Source of the DNA: an uncultured Bacteroidales bacterium
GTDB lineage: Bacteria; Bacteroidota; Bacteroidia; Bacteroidales; UBA10428
Direction: 5' to 3'
NCBI GenBank assembly: GCA_963705125.1
Contig: CAVPIY010000005.1
Span: forward strand, 20,793 to 84,792
DNA: 64,000 nucleotides
How positions within the stretch are numbered: position 1 is the first letter of the stretch; every line of letters begins with the position of its first letter. Below the pieces are notes generated by a model. It searched no databases. It saw only the letters and a list, made by a program, of their open reading frames with translations, and was not told the origin of the DNA. Below, piece after piece: positions 14,718 to 24,096 of this stretch. The translations under genes were made by a program, and so were the position numbers.

Positions 14718-16025
14718 ATGACTTCCTTCAGTGTAACCGGTGGCAGGCGGCTCAGTGGACAGATCACACCTCAGGGTGCAAAAAATGAAGCCTTACAGGT
14801 GATCTGTGCCACACTGCTGACTCCGGAGAAGGTGATCATCCACAATATTCCGGATATCCTGGACGTAAGGAATCTGATCGAGCTGATCGGATCACTTGGT
14901 GTTGAAGTGATCAGGCTCTCAGAGCACTCCTATAGTTTTACAGCACACGAAGTGAACATCGATTTCCTGCTTAACAATGAATTCAGGCAGCGAAGTGGCA
15001 GCCTGCGGGGCTCACTGATGATCATCGGTCCGCTTCTGGCCCGGTTTGGCAAGGGCTATATTCCGCGTCCGGGTGGCGATAAGATCGGCCGCAGACGGAT
15101 GGATACGCATATTAACGGATTGGTGAGCCTGGGTGCCACTTTTGATTATGAATATACCCAGGAGTTCTATAAATTACATGCCGAAAAACTCACCGGGTGC
15201 AACCTGCTGCTTGAAGAAGCTTCCGTTACCGGGACAGCAAATATTCTCATGGCTGCTGCACTGGCCAGGGGAAAAACCACCATTTACCATGCTGCCTGCG
15301 AACCTTATGTCCAGCAGCTTTGTCACATGCTCAACCGTATGGGCGCCAGGGTATCGGGTATCGGATCAAACCTGCTTGCCATTGATGGGGTGGATCACCT
15401 TGGAGGTTGTGAACACACCCTGTTGCCGGATATGATTGAGATTGGCTCATTTATTGGACTGGCAGCCATGACGCGCTCGGAGATTACCATAAAGAACGTG
15501 TCCTGGGAAAACCTCGGCATTATTCCGGCCGTGTTTCGCAGGATCGGAATTGCATTCGAACGGCGCGGAGATGATATTTATGTTCCGGGAAAGCCCCATT
15601 ATCAGGTGGATACTTTTATCGATGGCTCCATTCTCACCATTGACGATGCTCCCTGGCCGGGATTTACGCCCGATCTGATCAGCGTGGTTCTGGTGGTGGC
15701 AACCCAGGCCCGAGGCAGTGTATTGATACACCAGAAGATGTTCGAAAGCCGGCTTTTTTTCGTGGATAAGCTTATTGATATGGGCGCCCAGATCATACTG
15801 TGCGATCCGCACAGGGCTACCGTGATCGGGCAGGATAATAAAATAAAGCTTAGAGCTACAACCATGACCTCTCCCGATATCAGGGCCGGAGTGGCCTTGC
15901 TTATTGCAGCCCTTTCAGCTGAAGGCACCAGCATCATCCATAACATTGACCAGATTGACCGGGGTTATGAGCAGATAGATATCCGTCTTAATGCATTGGG
16001 TGCTGACATACACCGTATTGGATGA
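14718..16025 (+). CDS. murA: UDP-N-acetylglucosamine 1-carboxyvinyltransferase
   Basis: 435-aa ORF with QGAKNEALQVICATLL, PGGDKIGRRRMDTH and FTPDL..V motifs. Length is typical of MurA. Confidence 0.92.
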   Translation: MTSFSVTGGRRLSGQITPQGAKNEALQVICATLLTPEKVIIHNIPDILDVRNLIELIGSLGVEVIRLSEHSYSFTAHEVNIDFLLNNEFRQRSGSLRGSLMIIGPLLARFGKGYIPRPGGDKIGRRRMDTHINGLVSLGATFDYEYTQEFYKLHAEKLTGCNLLLEEASVTGTANILMAAALARGKTTIYHAACEPYVQQLCHMLNRMGARVSGIGSNLLAIDGVDHLGGCEHTLLPDMIEIGSFIGLAAMTRSEITIKNVSWENLGIIPAVFRRIGIAFERRGDDIYVPGKPHYQVDTFIDGSILTIDDAPWPGFTPDLISVVLVVATQARGSVLIHQKMFESRLFFVDKLIDMGAQIILCDPHRATVIGQDNKIKLRATTMTSPDIRAGVALLIAALSAEGTSIIHNIDQIDRGYEQIDIRLNALGADIHRIG

Positions 16026-16078
16026 CCCATATATTGCATTACCTGTTCATATCAGGGATTGAATAATAAGAATGTATC

Positions 16079-18088
16079 ATGTTTCTTTTTCTGGTTGTTT
16101 CCGTTCTGATCTTCACCATCTTAATTGTCCTGGTTAAGGAAAGGCACAAAGGTACAGTGGCATTATCCGGTGTACTGGTGAATGCAGTACTCAGCTCATC
16201 GATTGCCATTGGTGCCCTGCAGGGACATCCCTGGTCTGAAACGGTTCAAGGCGGGAATGTATTCGGAGAAATACCGATCAGGGTCGATGGACTTTCAGCC
16301 TGGTTCATCCTGCTGACCAATTTCACTATGATTACCGGAATCTTGTATGGCCGTCAATACCTGAAGAAATGCAATGCTCTGCCGGCAAACCTCAGTCTTC
16401 ATTATATTAGCTACATCCTGAATCAGGCAGCACTCACCGGTGTGTTCTTTATCCAGCACGGGCTGGCCTTTATCTGCACATGGGAGATCACAGCGCTGTC
16501 CGCCTTTATTATGGTGATCTTTGAACATGGCCGGATGGAAACACTGAAAGCCGGTATCAATTATCTGATCCAGTCACATATCAGCATCATCTTCCTTACC
16601 CTTGGCTTTATCTGGGTATATTCTTCCACCGGTTCATTCGATTTCTCAGCCATAAGCGATTACAGCAATGCGGGTGCACCGGAAGCCGGATTGATTTTGT
16701 TCCTTGCCTTTTTTGTCGGTTTTGCCATCAAGGCCGGTTTTGTACCCTTTCATACCTGGCTGCCACTTGCCCATCCCGCCGCACCCTCCCATGTTTCCGG
16801 TATCATGTCGGGTGTCATCATTAAGGCCGGAATTTATGGCATCCTGCGGATGCTTATGCTGATCCCTGATAATCATCTTGTGCTGGGTTATTGTATTCTC
16901 ATCATATCCTTTATCTCGGGTATTTATGGTGTCATGCTTGCTATTCTTCAGCATAATATTAAAAAACTATTGGCCTATCACAGCATTGAGAATATAGGCA
17001 TCATCGGTATCGGGATAGGCATTGGGGCCATCGGAACCGGACTGGGACAGCCCTTTCTGGCTTATGCCGGATATGGGGGGGCCCTGCTTCATACACTGAA
17101 CCATTCCCTGTTCAAATCCCTGCTGTTTTACAGCACCGGAAATGTTTACCAGGCCACCCATTCCGTTCATATTGAACACATGGGCGGACTGATCAAAAAA
17201 ATGCCCCGGACAGCCATTCTCTTTCTGTTAGCTGCACTGGCCATATGCGGACTTCCGCCCTTTAACGGTTTCATTTCCGAATTTCTCATTTATACCGGTC
17301 TGTACGGGGCAATGGGCACTCATCAAATATCAGCTGTTGTGATAGTCCTTGTCATCGGAGGTCTGGCCTTGATAGGTGGTCTGGCCCTGCTTTGCTTTAC
17401 CAAAGCATTCGGCATCATTTTCCTGGGAACAGCAAGAAACCGGCAAAGCGGTTTGGCTACGGAAGCCTCTTCAGCTATGATGTATCCCAATTATCTGGTA
17501 GCCCTTCTGATCATGATGATCGGACTGTTCCCCGGACTTTTCATCAACCTGCTCCAGAAACCGGTTGAGGGTCTTTCAGGCATTACACTGACCCTGCAAT
17601 ATTCCGAACTTACAGATCTGATGCAAAGGATCAGTTACTCCGTATGGGGTCTGATCCTGCTAACTGTTGTTCTGTTTTACATCCGGAAAATCGTGACCGG
17701 CAGGAAACCAGTCAACATGCAACCTACCTGGGGTTGCGGTTACACGACTGCATCACCTGCCATGCAATATACAGCCAATTCATTTGTGCGTTCTTATACC
17801 AAGCTCATCAAACCCCTTATTATCATGAATAAGACCAGGGATGAAATTCCGGATATCATCCCGGCCCCCATCCTGGCCGAAACGCATTATCACGACAAAA
17901 TTGAAACGGGTCTGATCGACTGGCCGGTAAGAAACCTGAAAGGATTTCTCAGGAGGTTTAAAATCCTCCAGAACGGCAGTGTACAGTTTTACGTGCTGTA
18001 TGGTGTGGTCTTTATTGCCATCAGCATTACCATACCGCTCATCTTTTTTGCAGGACAATACCTGATACAATTGCTGAAACAGTTATAA
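16079..18088 (+). CDS. HyfB/HycC-like antiporter-type membrane subunit (NuoL/M/N family) of a hydrogenase-related complex
   Basis: 669-aa polytopic ORF. It retains the conserved TM5 Glu (TWEITAL, Glu136 at 16484-16486) and the TM7 Lys context (AIKAGFVPFHTWLP, Lys218 at 16730-16732). The HyfB-type C-terminal extension is present (PTWGCGY...MQYTANSF). Confidence 0.85.
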   Translation: MFLFLVVSVLIFTILIVLVKERHKGTVALSGVLVNAVLSSSIAIGALQGHPWSETVQGGNVFGEIPIRVDGLSAWFILLTNFTMITGILYGRQYLKKCNALPANLSLHYISYILNQAALTGVFFIQHGLAFICTWEITALSAFIMVIFEHGRMETLKAGINYLIQSHISIIFLTLGFIWVYSSTGSFDFSAISDYSNAGAPEAGLILFLAFFVGFAIKAGFVPFHTWLPLAHPAAPSHVSGIMSGVIIKAGIYGILRMLMLIPDNHLVLGYCILIISFISGIYGVMLAILQHNIKKLLAYHSIENIGIIGIGIGIGAIGTGLGQPFLAYAGYGGALLHTLNHSLFKSLLFYSTGNVYQATHSVHIEHMGGLIKKMPRTAILFLLAALAICGLPPFNGFISEFLIYTGLYGAMGTHQISAVVIVLVIGGLALIGGLALLCFTKAFGIIFLGTARNRQSGLATEASSAMMYPNYLVALLIMMIGLFPGLFINLLQKPVEGLSGITLTLQYSELTDLMQRISYSVWGLILLTVVLFYIRKIVTGRKPVNMQPTWGCGYTTASPAMQYTANSFVRSYTKLIKPLIIMNKTRDEIPDIIPAPILAETHYHDKIETGLIDWPVRNLKGFLRRFKILQNGSVQFYVLYGVVFIAISITIPLIFFAGQYLIQLLKQL

Positions 18089-18090
18089 TC

Positions 18091-19005
18091 ATGCAAGTAC
18101 TAAGCCTGTTGCTGATCATCATGACCAGTCTGTTCTTTACCGGGATCGTCATCCGGGCAAAAAGCATATTCTCAGGCGGAAAGGGCCCCGGGATACTCCA
18201 GCCAATGCGGGACATAATCCGTTCATTCCGGAAAGGATCGGTTTTCAGCCAAACCAGCAGCATCATTTTTCAGCTGGCCCCTGTCATCTATTTTGCCAGC
18301 CTCCTCATGGCCATCCTGTTTATACCTTTTGGCAATCAGCCGGGGATCATTTCATTCAAGGGGGATTTTGTGCTGTTTGCCTATATACTTGCATTGGGTA
18401 AGTTCTTCATGATCATTGCAGCGCTCGATACAGGAAGCAGCTTCGAAGGCATGGGAGCCAGCAGGGAAGCTCTCTTCTCCATGCTGGTTGAACCTGCTTT
18501 TTTTATGCTTATGGGCTCACTGTCTCTGCTAACCGGATATACTTCCTTTGCGGGTATATTCAGTGCCCTGCATTTCGGCTCCTACACGTCTTACGGTATA
18601 GGCATTCTGGCTTCATTTGTGTTCATCACCATTGCACTCATTGAAAACAGCCGCATGCCGGTGGATGATCCGAAAACCCACCTGGAACTGACCATGGTGC
18701 ATGAAGTGATGATCCTCGATAACAGCGGATTCGACCTCGGACTGATCATGTATGCCATAAACCTCAAATTTGCCCTGTACGGGGCCATTATTGCCAATTT
18801 TTTTCTTACCCCCGGATTTCAGCTGTATTATTCCATTCCGATTTATATTGCGGTGCAGGTGGTTTTTGCTATCCTGGTCGGTGTAATCGAATCATTTTCC
18901 GCGCGGTTCAGGATGAATCACAACCCGCAGTTCATCCTGATGTTCACTTCCATCTCCCTGCTTATTTTCCTGGGTGTATTGCTGATGCTTGGTAAAATCA
19001 TATAA
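18091..19005 (+). CDS. HyfC/HycD-like (NuoH-family) membrane subunit
   Basis: 304-aa polytopic ORF starting 2 nt after the preceding stop. NuoH/HycD-like motifs are present (GPGILQP.RD, ENSRMPVDDPKTHLELTMVHE). Confidence 0.8.
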   Translation: MQVLSLLLIIMTSLFFTGIVIRAKSIFSGGKGPGILQPMRDIIRSFRKGSVFSQTSSIIFQLAPVIYFASLLMAILFIPFGNQPGIISFKGDFVLFAYILALGKFFMIIAALDTGSSFEGMGASREALFSMLVEPAFFMLMGSLSLLTGYTSFAGIFSALHFGSYTSYGIGILASFVFITIALIENSRMPVDDPKTHLELTMVHEVMILDNSGFDLGLIMYAINLKFALYGAIIANFFLTPGFQLYYSIPIYIAVQVVFAILVGVIESFSARFRMNHNPQFILMFTSISLLIFLGVLLMLGKII

Positions 19006-19016
19006 CCCGGATAACC

Positions 19017-19646
19017 ATGATTAACATTTTGCTGATAACCTTTACAATTACCCTCATATATATCGGCATGGCGAACCGGTTATTGACCTATATCCGGCTT
19101 ATCGCATTTCAGGGATTTCTGCTTTTCGGGGTGGCCTTTATTGAACTGATCGAGATCAATATGATAAACCTCATCTTTGTTCTGCTCGAGACCATTGTCA
19201 TCAAAGCCATTGCCATTCCGTTTTTCCTTAAATATATTCTCGACCGGAACAACATCACCCGGGAAGCTGAACCCTTTGTATCCAATTTCGTCTCTGTTGT
19301 CATCATAACAGGCATTATACTGGGATCATTTTTCCTGTCCGGCCTCGTGCAGGAAAACCAGGTCGGAAACATGTATTTCACCGTAGCTCTCTCCGCCCTG
19401 TTTACAGGTTTGTATATCATCATAACCCGGCGTAAGATCATCACACATGTTATGGGCTATATGGTCCTTGAAAACGGTGTTTTTGTCCTTTCCCTGGCTG
19501 TAGGGAGTAAAATGCCCATGGTGGTCAACACCGGTATCCTGCTGGATATTTTTGTAAGTGTGATCCTGCTTGGCATTTTCGCGGATAAAATCGGAGATGT
19601 ATTTGATGAACAAGATGTTGGACAGTTAAGAAACCTGAAAGACTGA
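19017..19646 (+). CDS. HyfE-like (NuoK-related) small membrane subunit
   Basis: 209-aa hydrophobic ORF. Its position and size match hydrogenase-4 component E. Confidence 0.7.
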   Translation: MINILLITFTITLIYIGMANRLLTYIRLIAFQGFLLFGVAFIELIEINMINLIFVLLETIVIKAIAIPFFLKYILDRNNITREAEPFVSNFVSVVIITGIILGSFFLSGLVQENQVGNMYFTVALSALFTGLYIIITRRKIITHVMGYMVLENGVFVLSLAVGSKMPMVVNTGILLDIFVSVILLGIFADKIGDVFDEQDVGQLRNLKD

Positions 19647-19651
19647 ACAAT

Positions 19652-21091
19652 ATGCATGATATGATAATGGGAATTTATTTATCGGGTTCACTGTTCATTG
19701 GCCTGTTGTTCTATTTTCTGAGAAACCATATCCCGCAGATCTTGCTTGCCGGTTCTTTCATTTTGCTGCAAAGTACCCTGGCTGTATATGAATACTTGCA
19801 TCCCGGCTTCACCCAGCTTGTCTATTTTACACCGGATGCCCTTGCCATTCTTTTCCTGGTCGTCATCAGCATTGTTTGTATCCCGGCGTTTTATCACAGT
19901 TTTGTCTATTTCTCAAAGCATCCCTATAAACCCCGTGAACAGGGTATGTATTTTGCTGCCATGGTGGTACTTACCGCATCCCTGAGTGCTGCCTATTTGT
20001 CCAATCACATCGGCCTCACCTGGGTATTCGTGGAGCTGACAACCCTGAGTGCATCTGCCCTGATCTATCACCGGCGGAACAAACTGACCCTCGAAGGCAC
20101 CTGGAAGTATATCTTTATCTGTTCCATCAGCATAACCCTGGTATTTATCGGCGTGTTGTTTGTCACTGTCGCCGTGCAACAGCAAGGAATACATGATCTG
20201 TTTTACAAAGACCTGTCTCTTCATGCCGGAAGCCTTAATGTATTCTGGCTTAAGCTTGCGTTCCTTTTCATTTTTACCGGATTTACGGCAAAGGCCGGAC
20301 TCGTGCCCATGTATACAGCCGGCATCGATGCGAAGGATAATGCCCCATACCCGGCTGCCGCCCTGCTGGCGAGTGTGCTGATGAACGTAGGCTTTATCGG
20401 TATTTTCCGGTTTTACGAGATTACAAGCCATACCGCCATTTTTAGATGGACCAACAACATCGTACTGATCTCCGCCCTGTTATCTGTATTTGTGGCTGCG
20501 GTTTATATGCTACGGGTCAAGAACATCAAAAGAATGATGGCCTATTCTGGTGTTGAACACATGGGAATCGTGATGCTTGGACTGGCTGCAGGCGGTATTG
20601 GCTATTATGCGGCCATTCTTCACCTGGTATTGCATTCCTTTGCCAAACCCGCGCTTTTCTTTCAGTTCGGACAAATATACAGGACTTACGGCAGCAAGAG
20701 TGTGTATGATGTGGGGAATTACTTCAAATACAACATGACCGGCGCGCTTGTCTTGTTGATCGCCTTTTTTGTGATCACTGCCATGCCACCCTCCGGCATG
20801 TTTGTGAGCGAATTTCTTGTTTTCCGGTCTTTGTTTGAGTCGGGAAACCTATGGGTGCTTATCATCGTGCTGATATTGCTTACCACCATCATCTGGGCCT
20901 TCGGGAAAAATGTTTTTAAAATGCTGTTCATCAAACCCATCGATTTTGATGACACCAAGGTTGAGCCTGTCCCGTTTTCGGAATCCATAAGCCAGTTTTT
21001 GCTTCTTGCCCTGGTGGTTTATTTAGGGCTGACTCCTCCGGATGAGCTGGTAGTCCTGATCCGGGAAGCCATTGGTACTTTGCCGCACTGA
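19652..21091 (+). CDS. HyfF-like antiporter-type membrane subunit (NuoM/N family)
   Basis: 479-aa polytopic ORF with a conserved Glu context (WVFVELTTLS) and a Lys context (FTAKAGLVP). Confidence 0.8.
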   Translation: MHDMIMGIYLSGSLFIGLLFYFLRNHIPQILLAGSFILLQSTLAVYEYLHPGFTQLVYFTPDALAILFLVVISIVCIPAFYHSFVYFSKHPYKPREQGMYFAAMVVLTASLSAAYLSNHIGLTWVFVELTTLSASALIYHRRNKLTLEGTWKYIFICSISITLVFIGVLFVTVAVQQQGIHDLFYKDLSLHAGSLNVFWLKLAFLFIFTGFTAKAGLVPMYTAGIDAKDNAPYPAAALLASVLMNVGFIGIFRFYEITSHTAIFRWTNNIVLISALLSVFVAAVYMLRVKNIKRMMAYSGVEHMGIVMLGLAAGGIGYYAAILHLVLHSFAKPALFFQFGQIYRTYGSKSVYDVGNYFKYNMTGALVLLIAFFVITAMPPSGMFVSEFLVFRSLFESGNLWVLIIVLILLTTIIWAFGKNVFKMLFIKPIDFDDTKVEPVPFSESISQFLLLALVVYLGLTPPDELVVLIREAIGTLPH

Positions 21092-21114
21092 TTCATGATA
21101 AAACAACTGCCACA

Positions 21115-22608
21115 ATGAATTCTTTATCAGTAAAAAATAACGAGTCAGTTCCCATATCGGATATCCCGGTCCTGCCTTACGATGATTTTCTGGAGATAAA
21201 TACAACCCGGGCCAAAGATGTATACGTTCACTGTGTGATCTACTTTGGCTGGCCGGCCGGTGAAAAGATCAGATTGTTCTGCTGCATGGCAGATGATGCG
21301 AAAGGAATTCTCATGATCTCTTCATCTGAAATAAAAAAAGGGGAAACTTATCCCTCGTTTACTGCAAAACATCTGGCCTTTCACCCTTTTGAACGGGAGA
21401 TGCACGAGATGCATGGGATTCAGTATGCGGATCATCCGTGGCTGAAACCCCTTCGTTTCCCGGCTTACCATGCGGGCAATGGGCTGTCGATGGCACAATA
21501 TCCTTTCTACCACATCGAGAGCGAGGAGCTGCACGAGGTGGGTGTTGGGCCGATCCATGCGGGGATCATTGAACCCGGGCATTTCCGCTTCATCTGCAAC
21601 GGGGAACAGATCCTGCACCTCGAGATACAACTGGGTTACCAGCACCGGGGTATCGAGCAACTTTTCCTCGATCGGAAAACCTTGCTGCAGCGCACAATTC
21701 TGGCCGAAAACATTGCCGGTGATTCGGTGGTGGGGCACACCACGGCCTTTGCCAATCTGTGGGAAAGCCTTTGCGGCTTTCTGCCGGATGACGATATTCT
21801 GTACGCCAGAACAGTGGCAGCCGAGCTGGAAAGAATAGCCATTCACACCGGTGACCTGAGCGCCATTTGCACAGATATTGCTTACCAGCTGGGAAGTTCG
21901 GTATTTGGCAGACTCCGGACACCGGTAATCAATACCTTTCAGGAATGGTGCGGTAACCGCCTGGCAAAGGGGATCATCCGGGCGGGCATGAACCGGTATC
22001 CGCTGAACCAAGTGATGGCTGATGCCCTCATCCGGCTGTTCGATAATTATGAACCCGATTTTAATGAAATGTACCAGCGAATGAAAACCCTGCCCAGTAT
22101 CCTGGCCCGGCTGGAAAGGACCGGCACTGTAACTGCGGATCACGCTGAACGGATTGGGGCCGTCGGGTTAGTCGCCAGGGCATCGGGCCTGATGCGTGAC
22201 ATCCGGTGGACACATCCCTATCTGCTTTACGGTCAGCTGCATCATCAGCCGATCATCAAGCACCATGGCGATGTATATTCAAGAACCCAGATCAGGAAGC
22301 AGGAGATCACCCAATCGATAAAGTATATGCGTGACCTGGTAAAGGAAATACCTGATTGTCTGACCGATGCAACGATCAAATCACCCCTGCCCGATTCATT
22401 CGTCATTTCCCTTACCGAAGGCTGGCGGGGCGAAATATGTCATTGTGCCATCACCAATGGATCAGGAGATCTTGCACTATATAAAATCAAAGACCCTTCA
22501 CTGCACAATTGGCTGGCCCTTGCACTGGCCGTCAGGAACAATGATATTTCTGATTTTCCGATCTGCAATAAAAGCTTTAACCTGAGCTATTGCGGGCACG
22601 ATTTATAG
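21115..22608 (+). CDS. HycE/HyfG/NuoCD-like large subunit lacking the NiFe-binding cysteine motifs
   Basis: 497-aa ORF with a NuoC-like N-terminus and a NuoD/HycE-like core (GPIHAGIIEPGHFRF, LGYQHRG). Where group-4 hydrogenases have R.CG.C...H, the sequence reads ENIAGDSVVGH (Ala201, Ser204, His208; 21715-21738). The C-terminus reads FNLSYCGHDL-stop instead of DPC..C..R/H plus an extension. Confidence 0.8.
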   Translation: MNSLSVKNNESVPISDIPVLPYDDFLEINTTRAKDVYVHCVIYFGWPAGEKIRLFCCMADDAKGILMISSSEIKKGETYPSFTAKHLAFHPFEREMHEMHGIQYADHPWLKPLRFPAYHAGNGLSMAQYPFYHIESEELHEVGVGPIHAGIIEPGHFRFICNGEQILHLEIQLGYQHRGIEQLFLDRKTLLQRTILAENIAGDSVVGHTTAFANLWESLCGFLPDDDILYARTVAAELERIAIHTGDLSAICTDIAYQLGSSVFGRLRTPVINTFQEWCGNRLAKGIIRAGMNRYPLNQVMADALIRLFDNYEPDFNEMYQRMKTLPSILARLERTGTVTADHAERIGAVGLVARASGLMRDIRWTHPYLLYGQLHHQPIIKHHGDVYSRTQIRKQEITQSIKYMRDLVKEIPDCLTDATIKSPLPDSFVISLTEGWRGEICHCAITNGSGDLALYKIKDPSLHNWLALALAVRNNDISDFPICNKSFNLSYCGHDL

Positions 22609-22656
22609 GACTTCCAGAAACTGTAACCATAGCCGCTAATAGAAAAAAACGAAACC

Positions 22657-23406
22657 ATGATCTCTGATATCAAGATATTAATCCATCAGGGGAAACAGTA
22701 TATACCCGATATAACCACGGCCGGCGTGCCCGGTATTTTCCGGGGAAGGCCTGTTATTTCATATGAAAAAACAGATGTGAACCAACTGGTGGAATTATGT
22801 CCCACCGGGGCCATCGCTCCTGATCCGTTGCGCATTGATCTGGGAAGATGTGTTTTCTGTGGCGAGTGCCAGTTTGCTTGCCCTTCCGGGATCACCTTCA
22901 CCAAAGATTATAAAATGGCTTCCTGTTCACGTGAAGACCTGATTATACATGAAGGCCGGAATGAACCCATAACCATCCGGCCTGAACAGGTCCGTAAAGA
23001 GATCCGTAGATATTTCGGGCGATCGCTTAAATTGCGTCAGGTTTCAGCAGGTGGTGACAACAGCTGTGAATGGGAGCTGAATGCTGCCGGGAATGTGAAT
23101 TTTGATATGGGGCGGTTTGGGATTGAATTTGTTGCTTCACCCCGCCATGCCGATGGTATTGTAATCACCGGACCCATTACCCGGAACATGTCGGAACCCT
23201 TACAAATATGTTATGATGCGGTGCCTCTTCCGAAAATTGTCATCCTGGCCGGTACCGATGCCATCAGCGGGGGTATTTTTGCCGGGAGTGGAGCGCTCGA
23301 CAGGTCATTTCTCGAAAGGTACCCTGTGGATCTTTATGTTCCGGGAAATCCGGTACACCCGCTCACTTTCATAAACGGAGTGCTCGGTTTAATCCGTACC
23401 GGATAA
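22657..23406 (+). CDS. Fusion of a degenerate ferredoxin-like (HycF/NuoI-like) domain with a HycG/NuoB-like small subunit lacking 3 of 4 cluster cysteines
   Basis: 249-aa ORF. The N-terminal part has a lone ELCPTGAI plus one full CVFCGECQFACP motif. The C-terminal part has NuoB/HycG signatures (RFGIEFVASPRHADGIVITG, PKIVILAG, ISGGIF, DLYVPG). The canonical Cys positions read Asp134 (23056-58), Cys137, Asp201 (23257-59) and Asn231 (23347-49). Confidence 0.8.
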   Translation: MISDIKILIHQGKQYIPDITTAGVPGIFRGRPVISYEKTDVNQLVELCPTGAIAPDPLRIDLGRCVFCGECQFACPSGITFTKDYKMASCSREDLIIHEGRNEPITIRPEQVRKEIRRYFGRSLKLRQVSAGGDNSCEWELNAAGNVNFDMGRFGIEFVASPRHADGIVITGPITRNMSEPLQICYDAVPLPKIVILAGTDAISGGIFAGSGALDRSFLERYPVDLYVPGNPVHPLTFINGVLGLIRTG

Positions 23407-24096
23407 CTGAATTAAATCGCCTATCCTGATCAGGTCAGCCTGATAATGCTTTTCAAGGATCATTCGGGGCAGATCAATTACCGGTCGTGCTGCCTTTTCA
23501 ATAATCGCGGTATCGGAAGTGGCAAGAACATCATAGGGCATATGTTTCAGGGCAAAATCGGCCGAACGGATCACCTGGCAGTTTCCCGCCAGGTGGCATT
23601 GTTCCAGCATGTCCCGGACAACCTGGGCATGTTTCTCACTGTGTGATACGGGAGAATCCAGAAATATATCCACGGAGGCAGGCTGCAAGGTTACCAGAAA
23701 ATCCATCAGCAGGGCAACACATTCACGGAAGGTGTTTTGATCCCGTAACCTGCCATGAAGCGAACCGGCGTCGCGCAGCAGATTATCGGTGGCGATAAAG
23801 GTAAAACGACCCAGCCGGTAGTTGAGCAGAGAAAATAGTACATTATAACCATCAACGGCCAGGGCAAGGCCTTTTGTTTCCTGTACAAGCCATGATTTTC
23901 TAATAGTTGATCTTTCACCGGAAGAAATTCCACGATAAAGCACCGTCCGTTGATCCCTGGTTAGCCTGTACCGGTCACCCACCAGCTTGATTGCCCCCCT
24001 TTCAGGATAATGCCGGTTCATCAGCCAGGCATAATCACGGCAGGCCTCCATGAAATCATTATTCAATAAATGCATTTTTTCATGCTTGAAGCACAA
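23389..24096 (-). CDS. Hypothetical protein, DUF434-like N-terminus with PIN/NYN-like C-terminal half
   Basis: 235-aa ORF. The LVGDRYRLTRDQRTVLYR segment recalls DUF434, and the C-terminal half has acidic-residue spacing reminiscent of PIN-like folds. The assignment is from memory only. Its 3' end overlaps the convergent small-subunit gene by 18 nt. Confidence 0.35.
   Translation of the reverse strand: MCFKHEKMHLLNNDFMEACRDYAWLMNRHYPERGAIKLVGDRYRLTRDQRTVLYRGISSGERSTIRKSWLVQETKGLALAVDGYNVLFSLLNYRLGRFTFIATDNLLRDAGSLHGRLRDQNTFRECVALLMDFLVTLQPASVDIFLDSPVSHSEKHAQVVRDMLEQCHLAGNCQVIRSADFALKHMPYDVLATSDTAIIEKAARPVIDLPRMILEKHYQADLIRIGDLIQLSGTD

Follow-up and report, generated by a model that had tools for sequence, protein, structure and literature searches.

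Ehr complexes, so called because they are related to Ech or energy-converting hydrogenases, are descendants of group-4 membrane hydrogenases in which the NiFe site has disappeared. They were reportedly first named by Coppi in 2005, for GSU0739-0745 of Geobacter sulfurreducens, and are said to have been surveyed by Marreiros et al. in 2013. Here we describe a stretch of 64,000 nucleotides from an uncultured Bacteroidales bacterium (contig CAVPIY010000005.1, positions 20,793 to 84,792; the window), which contains six tightly packed genes (16079-23406) that are predicted to encode an Ehr complex. The last gene of this operon encodes the small subunit, a fusion of a ferredoxin domain and a NuoB/HycG-like domain, which by its cysteines would keep only one of three ancestral Fe-S clusters and in which Asp, Asp and Asn are fixed at ligand positions of the former proximal cluster.

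The subunits of the Geobacter complex are listed as EhrA-1, EhrA-2, EhrB, EhrC, EhrD, EhrL and EhrS (GSU0739-0745; PMC8691401), and Ehr complexes are described as being of unknown function and as having a large subunit without the CxxC motifs (PMC6349859, PMC7304191, PMC4378227, PMC10284858, PMC10432482, PMC7894505, PMC3569383). The name of the family and the degenerate NiFe site are already known, and hence the context of the locus is not new. Within the accessible literature, a scope that does not include Coppi 2005 and Marreiros 2013, there is no mention of a loss of cysteines or clusters from the Ehr small subunit. A fused one-cluster small subunit, the phylum-wide Asp/Asp/Asn replacement and a parallel case in Actinomycetota appear to be undescribed there, and an earlier mention in those two works is possible. 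The window operon resembles the Geobacter one in the set and order of its subunits (NuoL-like, NuoH-like, HyfE-like, NuoN-like, large and small) and in the absence of the NiFe CxxC motifs. It differs, judged by published descriptions of the Geobacter complex (the EhrS sequence itself was not compared), in a small subunit without the distal and proximal clusters and with fixed Asp/Asp/Asn.

Together with MbhJ, HycF plus HycG of formate hydrogenlyase (FHL; 7Z0S) and HyfH plus HyfI of hydrogenase 4 are the nearest sequence relatives that have solved structures. HycG shares its fold and the coupling loop 'SPRHAD' with the window protein, and the membrane subunits of the window match best to the NCBIfam models of hydrogenase-4 B, E and F; in FHL and hydrogenase 4, however, two separate proteins carry three [4Fe-4S] clusters and feed a NiFe site, whereas the window encodes one fused protein with one predicted cluster and no NiFe site. 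The MBS/Mbx sulfane-sulfur reductase retains a three-cluster chain. Like the window complex it is a NiFe-less group-4 descendant with Mrp-like subunits and shows that the pocket can be repurposed, but it resembles the window protein far less closely (6U8Y, E = 1e-9). MbhJ, which together with MbhN belongs to the Pyrococcus furiosus complex 6CFW, is the top match by sequence and by fold, but keeps all four cysteines and an active NiFe partner.

In complex I, NuoI and NuoB (clusters N6a, N6b and N2) consist of homologous domains, the retained cluster of the window protein would be the counterpart of N6b and the lost site that of N2, and conservation extends to the coupling loops; in contrast, the window complex lacks NuoEFG, N2 and N6a, and according to our reading of the alignment the quinone-binding Tyr is absent from EhrL. 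The Mrp Na+/H+ antiporters also have antiporter-like subunits with a Glu in transmembrane helix (TM) 5 and Lys in TM7 and TM12, but no NuoH/NuoD/NuoB-like peripheral module. Of the MrpA-G set the window operon contains only MrpA/D-like domains, which score below the cut-offs and are accompanied by a peripheral arm, and MrpB, C, E, F and G were not found in it.

A fused small subunit with one predicted cluster

The translation of 22657-23406 that was quoted in the initial annotation of the window proved to be an exact match, and the proposed fusion of a ferredoxin with a NuoB/HycG-like domain is borne out by Pfam, by matches to solved structures and by alignments to NuoI, HycF and MbhN. Pfam assigns residues 136-243 to Oxidored_q6 (PF01058, the NuoB 20 kDa family; E = 2e-19, 70 bits at a cut-off of 27) and residues 59-78 to a single Fer4 motif (E = 7e-7). 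In a phmmer search against all PDB chains the best match was MbhJ (6cfw_J, E = 1.2e-23) and the second HycG (7z0s_G, E = 8.9e-20), followed by dozens of NDUFS7/NuoB chains. The ferredoxin domain matched E. coli NuoI (E = 6e-9), HycF (3e-6) and MbhN (6e-6); in the NuoI alignment, 'RCVFCGECQFACP' of the small subunit lies over motif II 'RCIFCGLCEEACP', and the NuoI-type similarity extends beyond this motif, where 'ITFTKDYKMASCSREDLI' is aligned with 'IQLTPDFEMGEYKRQDLV'. An AlphaFold2 model of the small subunit reached a mean predicted local distance difference test score (pLDDT) of 70, with values below 50 at the ligand loop, and its top Foldseek matches were 6cfw_J (E = 4e-10, TM-score 0.77 on the target) and 7z0t_G.

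In the 2x[4Fe-4S] ferredoxin fold, each cluster is bound by three cysteines of one motif and the 'CP' cysteine of the other motif. The two complete CxxCxxCxxxCP motifs of the NuoI/HycF ferredoxins are not present in the small subunit, which has motif II and the CP of motif I only, as the first three cysteines of motif I are gone. C65, C68 and C71 align to residues 98, 101 and 104 of Nqo9 and to motif II of E. coli NuoI. Conservation was evaluated in two sets, one with the 120 best homologues of the protein database plus the query (set 1, n = 121, 72-93% identity) and one with the 80 best genome relatives plus the query (set 2, n = 81, 69-81% identity). The latter uses the best 80 of 498 stretches that encode a relative (tblastn, E ≤ 1e-3, one genome per species). 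C48, C65, C68 and C71 are present in 100% of both sets, which confirms that the cysteines suffice for exactly one cluster. The initial annotation had counted a whole CxxCxxCxxxCP motif as remaining; C65, C68 and C71 of this motif are indeed conserved, but its last cysteine, C75, is vestigial and usually replaced by Phe (106/121 in set 1, 61/81 in set 2), and the real ligand set consists of C48 together with C65, C68 and C71. We take this set to be cluster N6b, reportedly (Sazanov and Hinchliffe 2006) the medial cluster adjoining N2, with N6a as the distal cluster on the input side. The small subunit is predicted to keep this one, the medial N6b equivalent, of three ancestral clusters. A complete motif I ('CADGCVECAEVCP') is retained in the relatives P0124 and P0126, and a further relative, P0127, has lost motif I and kept the four cysteines of the proximal site.

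Conserved replacements at the former proximal-cluster site

HMMER alignments to MbhJ and HycG, which are free of gaps near the ligands, place D134, C137, D201 and N231 at the columns of the cluster cysteines, as had been proposed from an alignment by eye. The segment 'vsaggdnscewel' with D134 and C137 lies over 'vnsgscngcdiei' of MbhJ and 'vdcggcngceiei' of HycG, 'lagtdaisggif' with D201 over 'aigacptggsvf' and 'sygacgnsggif', and 'vpgnpvhp' with N231 over 'vpgcpprp' and 'ipgcpptp'. The set of four cysteines that binds the N2/proximal [4Fe-4S] cluster in the PF01058 family is therefore absent from the small subunit.

The replacements are not free to vary. D134 is present in all sequences of both sets, D201 in 120/121 and 81/81 and N231 in 119/121 and 79/81; C137 is the only one of the four that varies (110/121 in set 1, the rest S, N or T; 76/81 in set 2). 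Both the fusion and the ligand pattern recur in about 200 homologues that cover every major order of Bacteroidota, with D134 and D201 essentially invariant and N231 nearly so, and the fixation of the residues at the ligand columns is far beyond chance. The initial annotation regarded Cys137 as the surviving ligand. Its position on a ligand column is correct, but since it is replaced by S, N or T in 5-9% of the close homologues, C137 is a relic and no meaningful survivor; in sister and parallel clades the position holds T, N, I, V, E or D. Mean column conservation of the C-terminal domain is about 88% in set 2, where 'AGGDNSCEWELNAAGNVNFDMGRFGIEFVASPRHADG' is nearly invariant. In the small subunit as a whole, 28% of the columns are invariant and the region of the replaced ligands is among the most conserved parts.

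These data show the proximal site as a selected rebuild and do not speak for decay. A decaying peripheral arm, in which the substitutions would be neutral remnants of an inactive hydrogenase part on a working or dead membrane antiporter, is strongly disfavoured and the least probable of all explanations that we weighed. It would be in line with the stepwise loss of clusters, with a Draconibacterium metagenome-assembled genome (MAG) that carries a second membrane-only set lacking the large and small subunits, and with the view that the Geobacter Ehr complex is non-functional (PMC13194489). Against this, the small subunit is still 69-93% identical across Bacteroidota orders with the conservation just described, EhrL is 57-78% identical among the genomes compared and has invariant loops, the genes in the window contain no frameshifts or stops, and all Geobacter Ehr subunits were detected and regulated in proteomes (PMC7894505).

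We consider it very improbable that Asp/Asp/Asn and C137 hold an unconventional Fe-S cluster, which would leave a shortened but working wire and a ferredoxin-dependent oxidoreductase acting on a substrate in the EhrL pocket. The medial cluster and the EhrL pocket are strongly conserved, related Ehr complexes with an intact site of four cysteines (CCCC) exist, and [4Fe-4S] clusters with one Asp or His among their ligands have precedents, for example in the P. furiosus ferredoxin. However, the lone cysteine is exchangeable in close homologues as well as in sister and parallel clades, and we know of no cubane with three non-thiolate ligands. In addition, a bulky Trp or Met adjoins the site in the Cys-less forms only, which suggests that the void near the former cluster is filled by protein.

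Reductive series and repeated loss of the proximal cluster

To place the small subunit within the fused family, 1.84 billion representatives at 50% identity were searched and the ligand columns were read off the alignment. Among these representatives, 19 proteins have the ligands of all three clusters, 16 those of the medial and proximal cluster, 6 those of the distal and medial cluster with an incomplete proximal site and about 13-18 those of the medial cluster alone; no credible full-length member lacks the medial one. Judged by these patterns, the window small subunit stands at the far end of a series of reductions that starts from a three-cluster HycF+HycG-like fusion. Lineages that seemed to lack the medial cluster (P0123, P0147, P0139, P0204, P0221) and many 'CCCA/CCCL/CCRS' patterns were discounted, as their scrambled N- or C-termini are typical of frameshifted metagenome calls. 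Odd ligand patterns or missing ferredoxin cysteines together with scrambled termini also occur in P0153, P0154, P0168, P0197 and P0202, among others. Because many odd patterns look like frameshifted gene calls, the raw pattern counts from metagenomes overstate the real diversity.

Proximal sites without the cysteine set occur in three groups. The clade of the query shows the patterns DCDN, DTDN, DNDH, DIEA, DVEA and DVEH, a second clade DEDS, DDDS, DIDD, DVDS and ECED, and a third lineage DSSD. A search seeded with the second clade retrieved an Actinomycetota clade (n = 120; Solirubrobacteraceae or Acidimicrobiales names), in which the pattern D/E/D/S is nearly fixed (D 120/120, E 116/120, D 118/120, S 118/120) together with W139 (118/120) and the medial cysteines (120/120). 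In a neighbour-joining tree with masked ligand columns (200 bootstraps, weak backbone) the DSSD protein nests within a CCCC clade with 98% support, and the Actinomycetota clade falls into an 80% clade that includes many CCCC proteins and excludes the clade of the query. These positions indicate that the proximal site was lost independently at least twice and probably three times. An Asp is found at ligand 1 after each of them, and since the change from Cys (TGY) to Asp (GAY) takes two nucleotide changes, the recurrent Asp is no easy mutational outcome. Position 139, two residues after ligand 2, is A, L, V, S or M in CCCC proteins and mostly W or M in the Cys-less ones. Small subunits of the CCCC type at the loci L003 and L087 also pair with NiFe-less large subunits, which indicates that the loss of the NiFe site preceded the loss of the proximal cluster. 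The large subunit that partners an Actinomycetota D/E/D/S protein (L085 3729-5186) is far more degenerate, lacks both the 'GPIHAGIIEPGH' histidines and the CNKSF motif at the C-terminus; at this locus the antiporter-like gene lies after, and not before, the small-subunit gene.

The former cubane site could instead bind a cation, as the initial annotation had suggested, or a mononuclear metal (Mg2+, Ca2+, Na+, Zn2+, Fe2+ or Mn2+), with D134, D201, N231 and residue 137 as ligands and help from E138/E140. Such an ion could act as a structural staple or, if redox-active, could link the retained cluster to the EhrL pocket as a relay. The hard O-donor set Asp, Asp and Asn with a Cys137 that is swappable for Ser, Thr or Asn, the three carboxylates plus Ser in the Actinomycetota clade, the four acidic residues clustered in 'GDNSCEWE ... 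GTDA' and the repeated selection of Asp despite its two-step codon path are all consistent with a cation site. But with N, H, A, S or D at position four and residues from C/T/N to I/V at position two, the site is loose for a coordination sphere, and Arg/His residues of EhrL could equally well be the partners of the carboxylates. We therefore regard a bound ion as somewhat unlikely.

Large subunit, membrane arm and coupling loops

All six proteins of the operon score below the curated NCBIfam cut-offs; the models that fit them best are those of hydrogenase-4 B, E and F, of NuoD and of NuoB. In EhrL, 'AENIAGDSVVGH' stands against 'SDRVCGICGFAH' of HycE and 'SFNLSYCGHDL' against 'SLDPCYSCTDR', so that the L1 motif RxCGxC of group-4 hydrogenases reads 'NIAGDS', the L2 motif DPCxxC reads 'NLSYCG' and all four NiFe-ligand columns are non-Cys. 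The same holds across 72 Bacteroidota genomes, except for a single Cys at position 204 in one of them. A group-4-like operon with four non-Cys NiFe-ligand columns in the large subunit is by definition an Ehr complex, and we assign the operon to this family on the basis of its predicted gene set and the loss of the NiFe cysteines.

The beta1-beta2 region 'VGVGPIHAGIIEPGHFRF' of EhrL is invariant in the 72 genomes. At its C-terminus (22564-22608) a conserved 'DFPICNKSFNLSYCGHDL' motif takes the place of DPCxxC, with N485, K486, S491, G494 and D496 in 71/72. As Ser replaces C484 and C493 in about 10-15% of the genomes, this motif is no Cys-metal site; no variation is seen in C161 and in G202-D203 of the former L1 motif. 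A new Cys site formed by C161, C220, C279, C484 and C493 was rejected, because only C161 is invariant and the other four are Ser, Gly or Ala in 10-15% of the genomes and in the loci L086 and L087.

In 55-67 Bacteroidota genomes the residues of the membrane arm are at least 97% conserved. This applies to the TM5 Glu (E136, E128) and TM7 Lys (K218, K214) of the two antiporter-like subunits, to K249 in TM8, to H338/H342/K346 and H324/H328/K332 in TM12, and, in the NuoH-like subunit, to the acidic loop 'IENSRMPVDDPKTHLE' between TM5 and TM6 and to other Glu/Arg residues. On the side of the small subunit, where residue numbers correspond to HycG + 86 in the HMMER alignment, 'FVASPRHADG' at the equivalent of the NDUFS7 loop is invariant in 81 sequences and includes the interface motif 'SPRHAD'. 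In the FHL structure, this 'NDUFS7 loop' (HycG 69-80) and its partner loops form the coupling interface, and when the NiFe site and the proximal cluster are damaged, these loops become disordered and the membrane arm is held less tightly (PMC9474812), which argues that the proximal site is structurally critical. A comparison of the EhrL partners of CCCC- and Asp-type small subunits for charge compensation revealed only one differing column, a conservative V/I exchange, in a very small sample.

Possible function of the one-cluster complex

Our favoured reading, to which we give a probability of about 50%, is that the proximal site has been remodelled under selection into a cluster-free site and that the complex probably translocates ions, with a cluster whose role is structural or sensory. 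Starting from an ancestral fusion with distal, medial and proximal [4Fe-4S] clusters, of which the small subunit keeps the medial one, the cubane and its thiolates would have been replaced by D134 and D201 (with E138 and E140 close by), N231 and the bulky W139. The two fixed carboxylates would make up for the lost -2 charge of [Fe4S4(SCys)4]2-, while Trp/Met would fill the volume and, together with Asn/Ser, satisfy the needs for hydrogen bonds and packing. The interface of the small, large and NuoH-like subunits and the coupling loops would stay folded in this way without an oxygen-labile cluster, and a cluster-free site would suit the many aerobic carriers.

The canonical path from ferredoxin via the NuoI clusters and the proximal cluster to the pocket of the large subunit would be interrupted by this change. 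As each step in the cluster relay of FHL is shorter than 14 Å (PMC9474812) and the proximal centre is gone, the medial cluster would be too far away from the EhrL pocket for physiological tunnelling. This agrees with the earlier suggestion of a cluster without a downstream acceptor, which holds for the canonical route given the Cys-less proximal site and A201/S204 and S491/G494 in EhrL. The complex has probably ceased to act as an electron wire, so that the remaining cluster would be structural or serve as a redox sensor or gate. With its conformational coupling module retained, the complex would most likely translocate cations or protons in the manner of Mrp and would probably be no oxidoreductase.

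Several points weigh against this reading. The AlphaFold2 model is poor exactly at the rebuilt loop (residues 134-149, pLDDT below 50). The conservation of the small and large subunits exceeds what a passive scaffold would need, which could reflect some other chemistry, and the fact that the medial cluster is kept throughout could point to a persisting redox function. The independence of the losses rests on a neighbour-joining tree with a weak backbone, and the D...W...D pattern could partly be due to common ancestry.

It is also conceivable, though we think it quite unlikely, that the complex is a coupling machine of the complex-I type without an electron-transfer chain, with a cation or fixed charge at the former N2 site, the retained cluster as a redox switch and the loops coupling the pocket of the large subunit to ion flow. 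Ion flow would then be gated either by the redox state or by a ligand in this pocket, or would itself drive a non-redox event there; this would apply to the Bacteroidota Ehr complexes and, in parallel, to those of Actinomycetota.

Ehr complexes are widespread and were named twenty years ago, and the accessible literature deals with the missing NiFe site only. If whole phyla keep a version with one orphan cluster under strong selection, along with its membrane pumps and every coupling loop, Ehr complexes are probably not conventional oxidoreductases, and the finding argues that many of them are no electron-transfer enzymes. The one-cluster form sits between hydrogenases/complex I on one side and Mrp antiporters on the other, and as a natural 'redox-dead' relative of complex I it could separate conformational coupling from electron transfer. 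As one carrier, Chryseolinea serpens DSM 24574, is cultured, the one-cluster form is experimentally accessible.

Distribution and gene neighbourhood

The coordinates of the operon and its conserved sites are compiled in Table 1.

Table 1. Genes, domains and sites of the Ehr operon, in window coordinates.
Feature	Position	Strand	Evidence or remark
Small-subunit gene (EhrS type)	22657..23406	+	NuoI/HycF-like + NuoB/HycG-like fusion, 249 amino acids, ATG start
N-terminal NuoI/HycF-like ferredoxin domain, residues 1-110	22657..22986	+	Pfam Fer4; NuoI, HycF and MbhN alignments
C48, 'CP' of former motif I	22798..22800	+	predicted fourth ligand of the retained cluster; 121/121, 81/81
C65-x2-C68-x2-C71, ligands of the predicted N6b-equivalent cluster	22849..22869	+	invariant; NuoI motif II, Nqo9 98-104
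C75, vestigial ligand of the lost distal cluster	22879..22881	+	Phe in most homologues
NuoB/HycG/MbhJ-like domain, residues 125-245	23029..23391	+	PF01058, MbhJ match, Foldseek
D134-N-S-C137-E-W139, former CxxC	23056..23073	+	Asp at ligand 1 (GAC, 23056-58), variable Cys at ligand 2 (TGT, 23065-67), bulky Trp alongside
'GIEFVASPRHAD', equivalent of HycG 69-80 / NDUFS7 coupling loop	23119..23154	+	almost invariant
D201, former ligand 3	23257..23259	+	GAT; 120/121 and 81/81
N231, former ligand 4	23347..23349	+	AAT; 119/121 and 79/81
EhrA-2, HyfB/NuoL-like antiporter-like subunit, 669 amino acids	16079..18088	+	E136, K218, K249, H338/H342, K346 conserved
EhrB, NuoH/HycD-like	18091..19005	+	TM5-6 loop conserved
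EhrC, HyfE-like membrane subunit	19017..19646	+	Pfam, NCBIfam
EhrD, HyfF/NuoN-like antiporter-like subunit, 479 amino acids	19652..21091	+	E128, K214, K332 conserved
EhrL, NuoC+NuoD/HycE-like large subunit, 497 amino acids	21115..22608	+	no NiFe ligands
EhrL, former NiFe-ligand sites A201/S204 and S491/G494	21715-21726; 22585-22596	+	HycE alignment

The protein database contained at least 8000 candidates for relatives of the small subunit, and the best 120 belong, where named, to Bacteroidales, Bacteroidota or Saprospirales. The best 80 of the 498 genome stretches come from Bacteroidales, Lentimicrobiaceae, Prolixibacteraceae, Chitinophagales, Saprospiraceae, Sphingobacteriales, Flavobacteriales and Cytophagales, with C. 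serpens as a member of the last group. The gene order of the operon is constant across these loci. Neither a conserved redox partner nor any other conserved neighbour of the operon was found in the 80 loci, and NuoEFG, the N-module of complex I, is absent from the operon and its surroundings in all of them. The neighbours murA, DUF434/DUF5616, DoxX and GFO_IDH are limited to one Bacteroidales subgroup.

At 16025-16079 of the window the operon opens directly after murA with the 669-residue HyfB-like gene, and it has no EhrA-1. This additional first antiporter-like gene (about 630-663 amino acids, e.g., L001 1445-3436) is present in about 41 of about 57 sufficiently complete loci, and operons of six and of seven genes both occur, also among the murA-linked Bacteroidales loci. 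Downstream, a DUF434/DUF5616 gene (23389-24096, minus strand) converges on the small-subunit gene, and the 3' ends of the two overlap by 18 bp; its pairing with an upstream murA is seen in about 10-13 of the 80 loci, all from the Bacteroidales subgroup.

A regulator of the Crp/Fnr family adjoins the Ehr operon in 6 of the 80 loci (e.g., L019 203-910), in four of them upstream and on the opposite strand. In the Draconibacterium MAG mentioned above (L060 10839-15842) the second, tandem membrane set (673, 304, 209 and 473 amino acids) follows right after the small-subunit gene. Upstream of the operon at L087 (1-3027) we found an HdrA-like flavin adenine dinucleotide/pyridine-nucleotide-disulfide oxidoreductase with Fer4, a Fer4 protein, OsmC and a rhodanese, and these genes may provide a sulfur-linked redox partner for the three-cluster form of Ehr.

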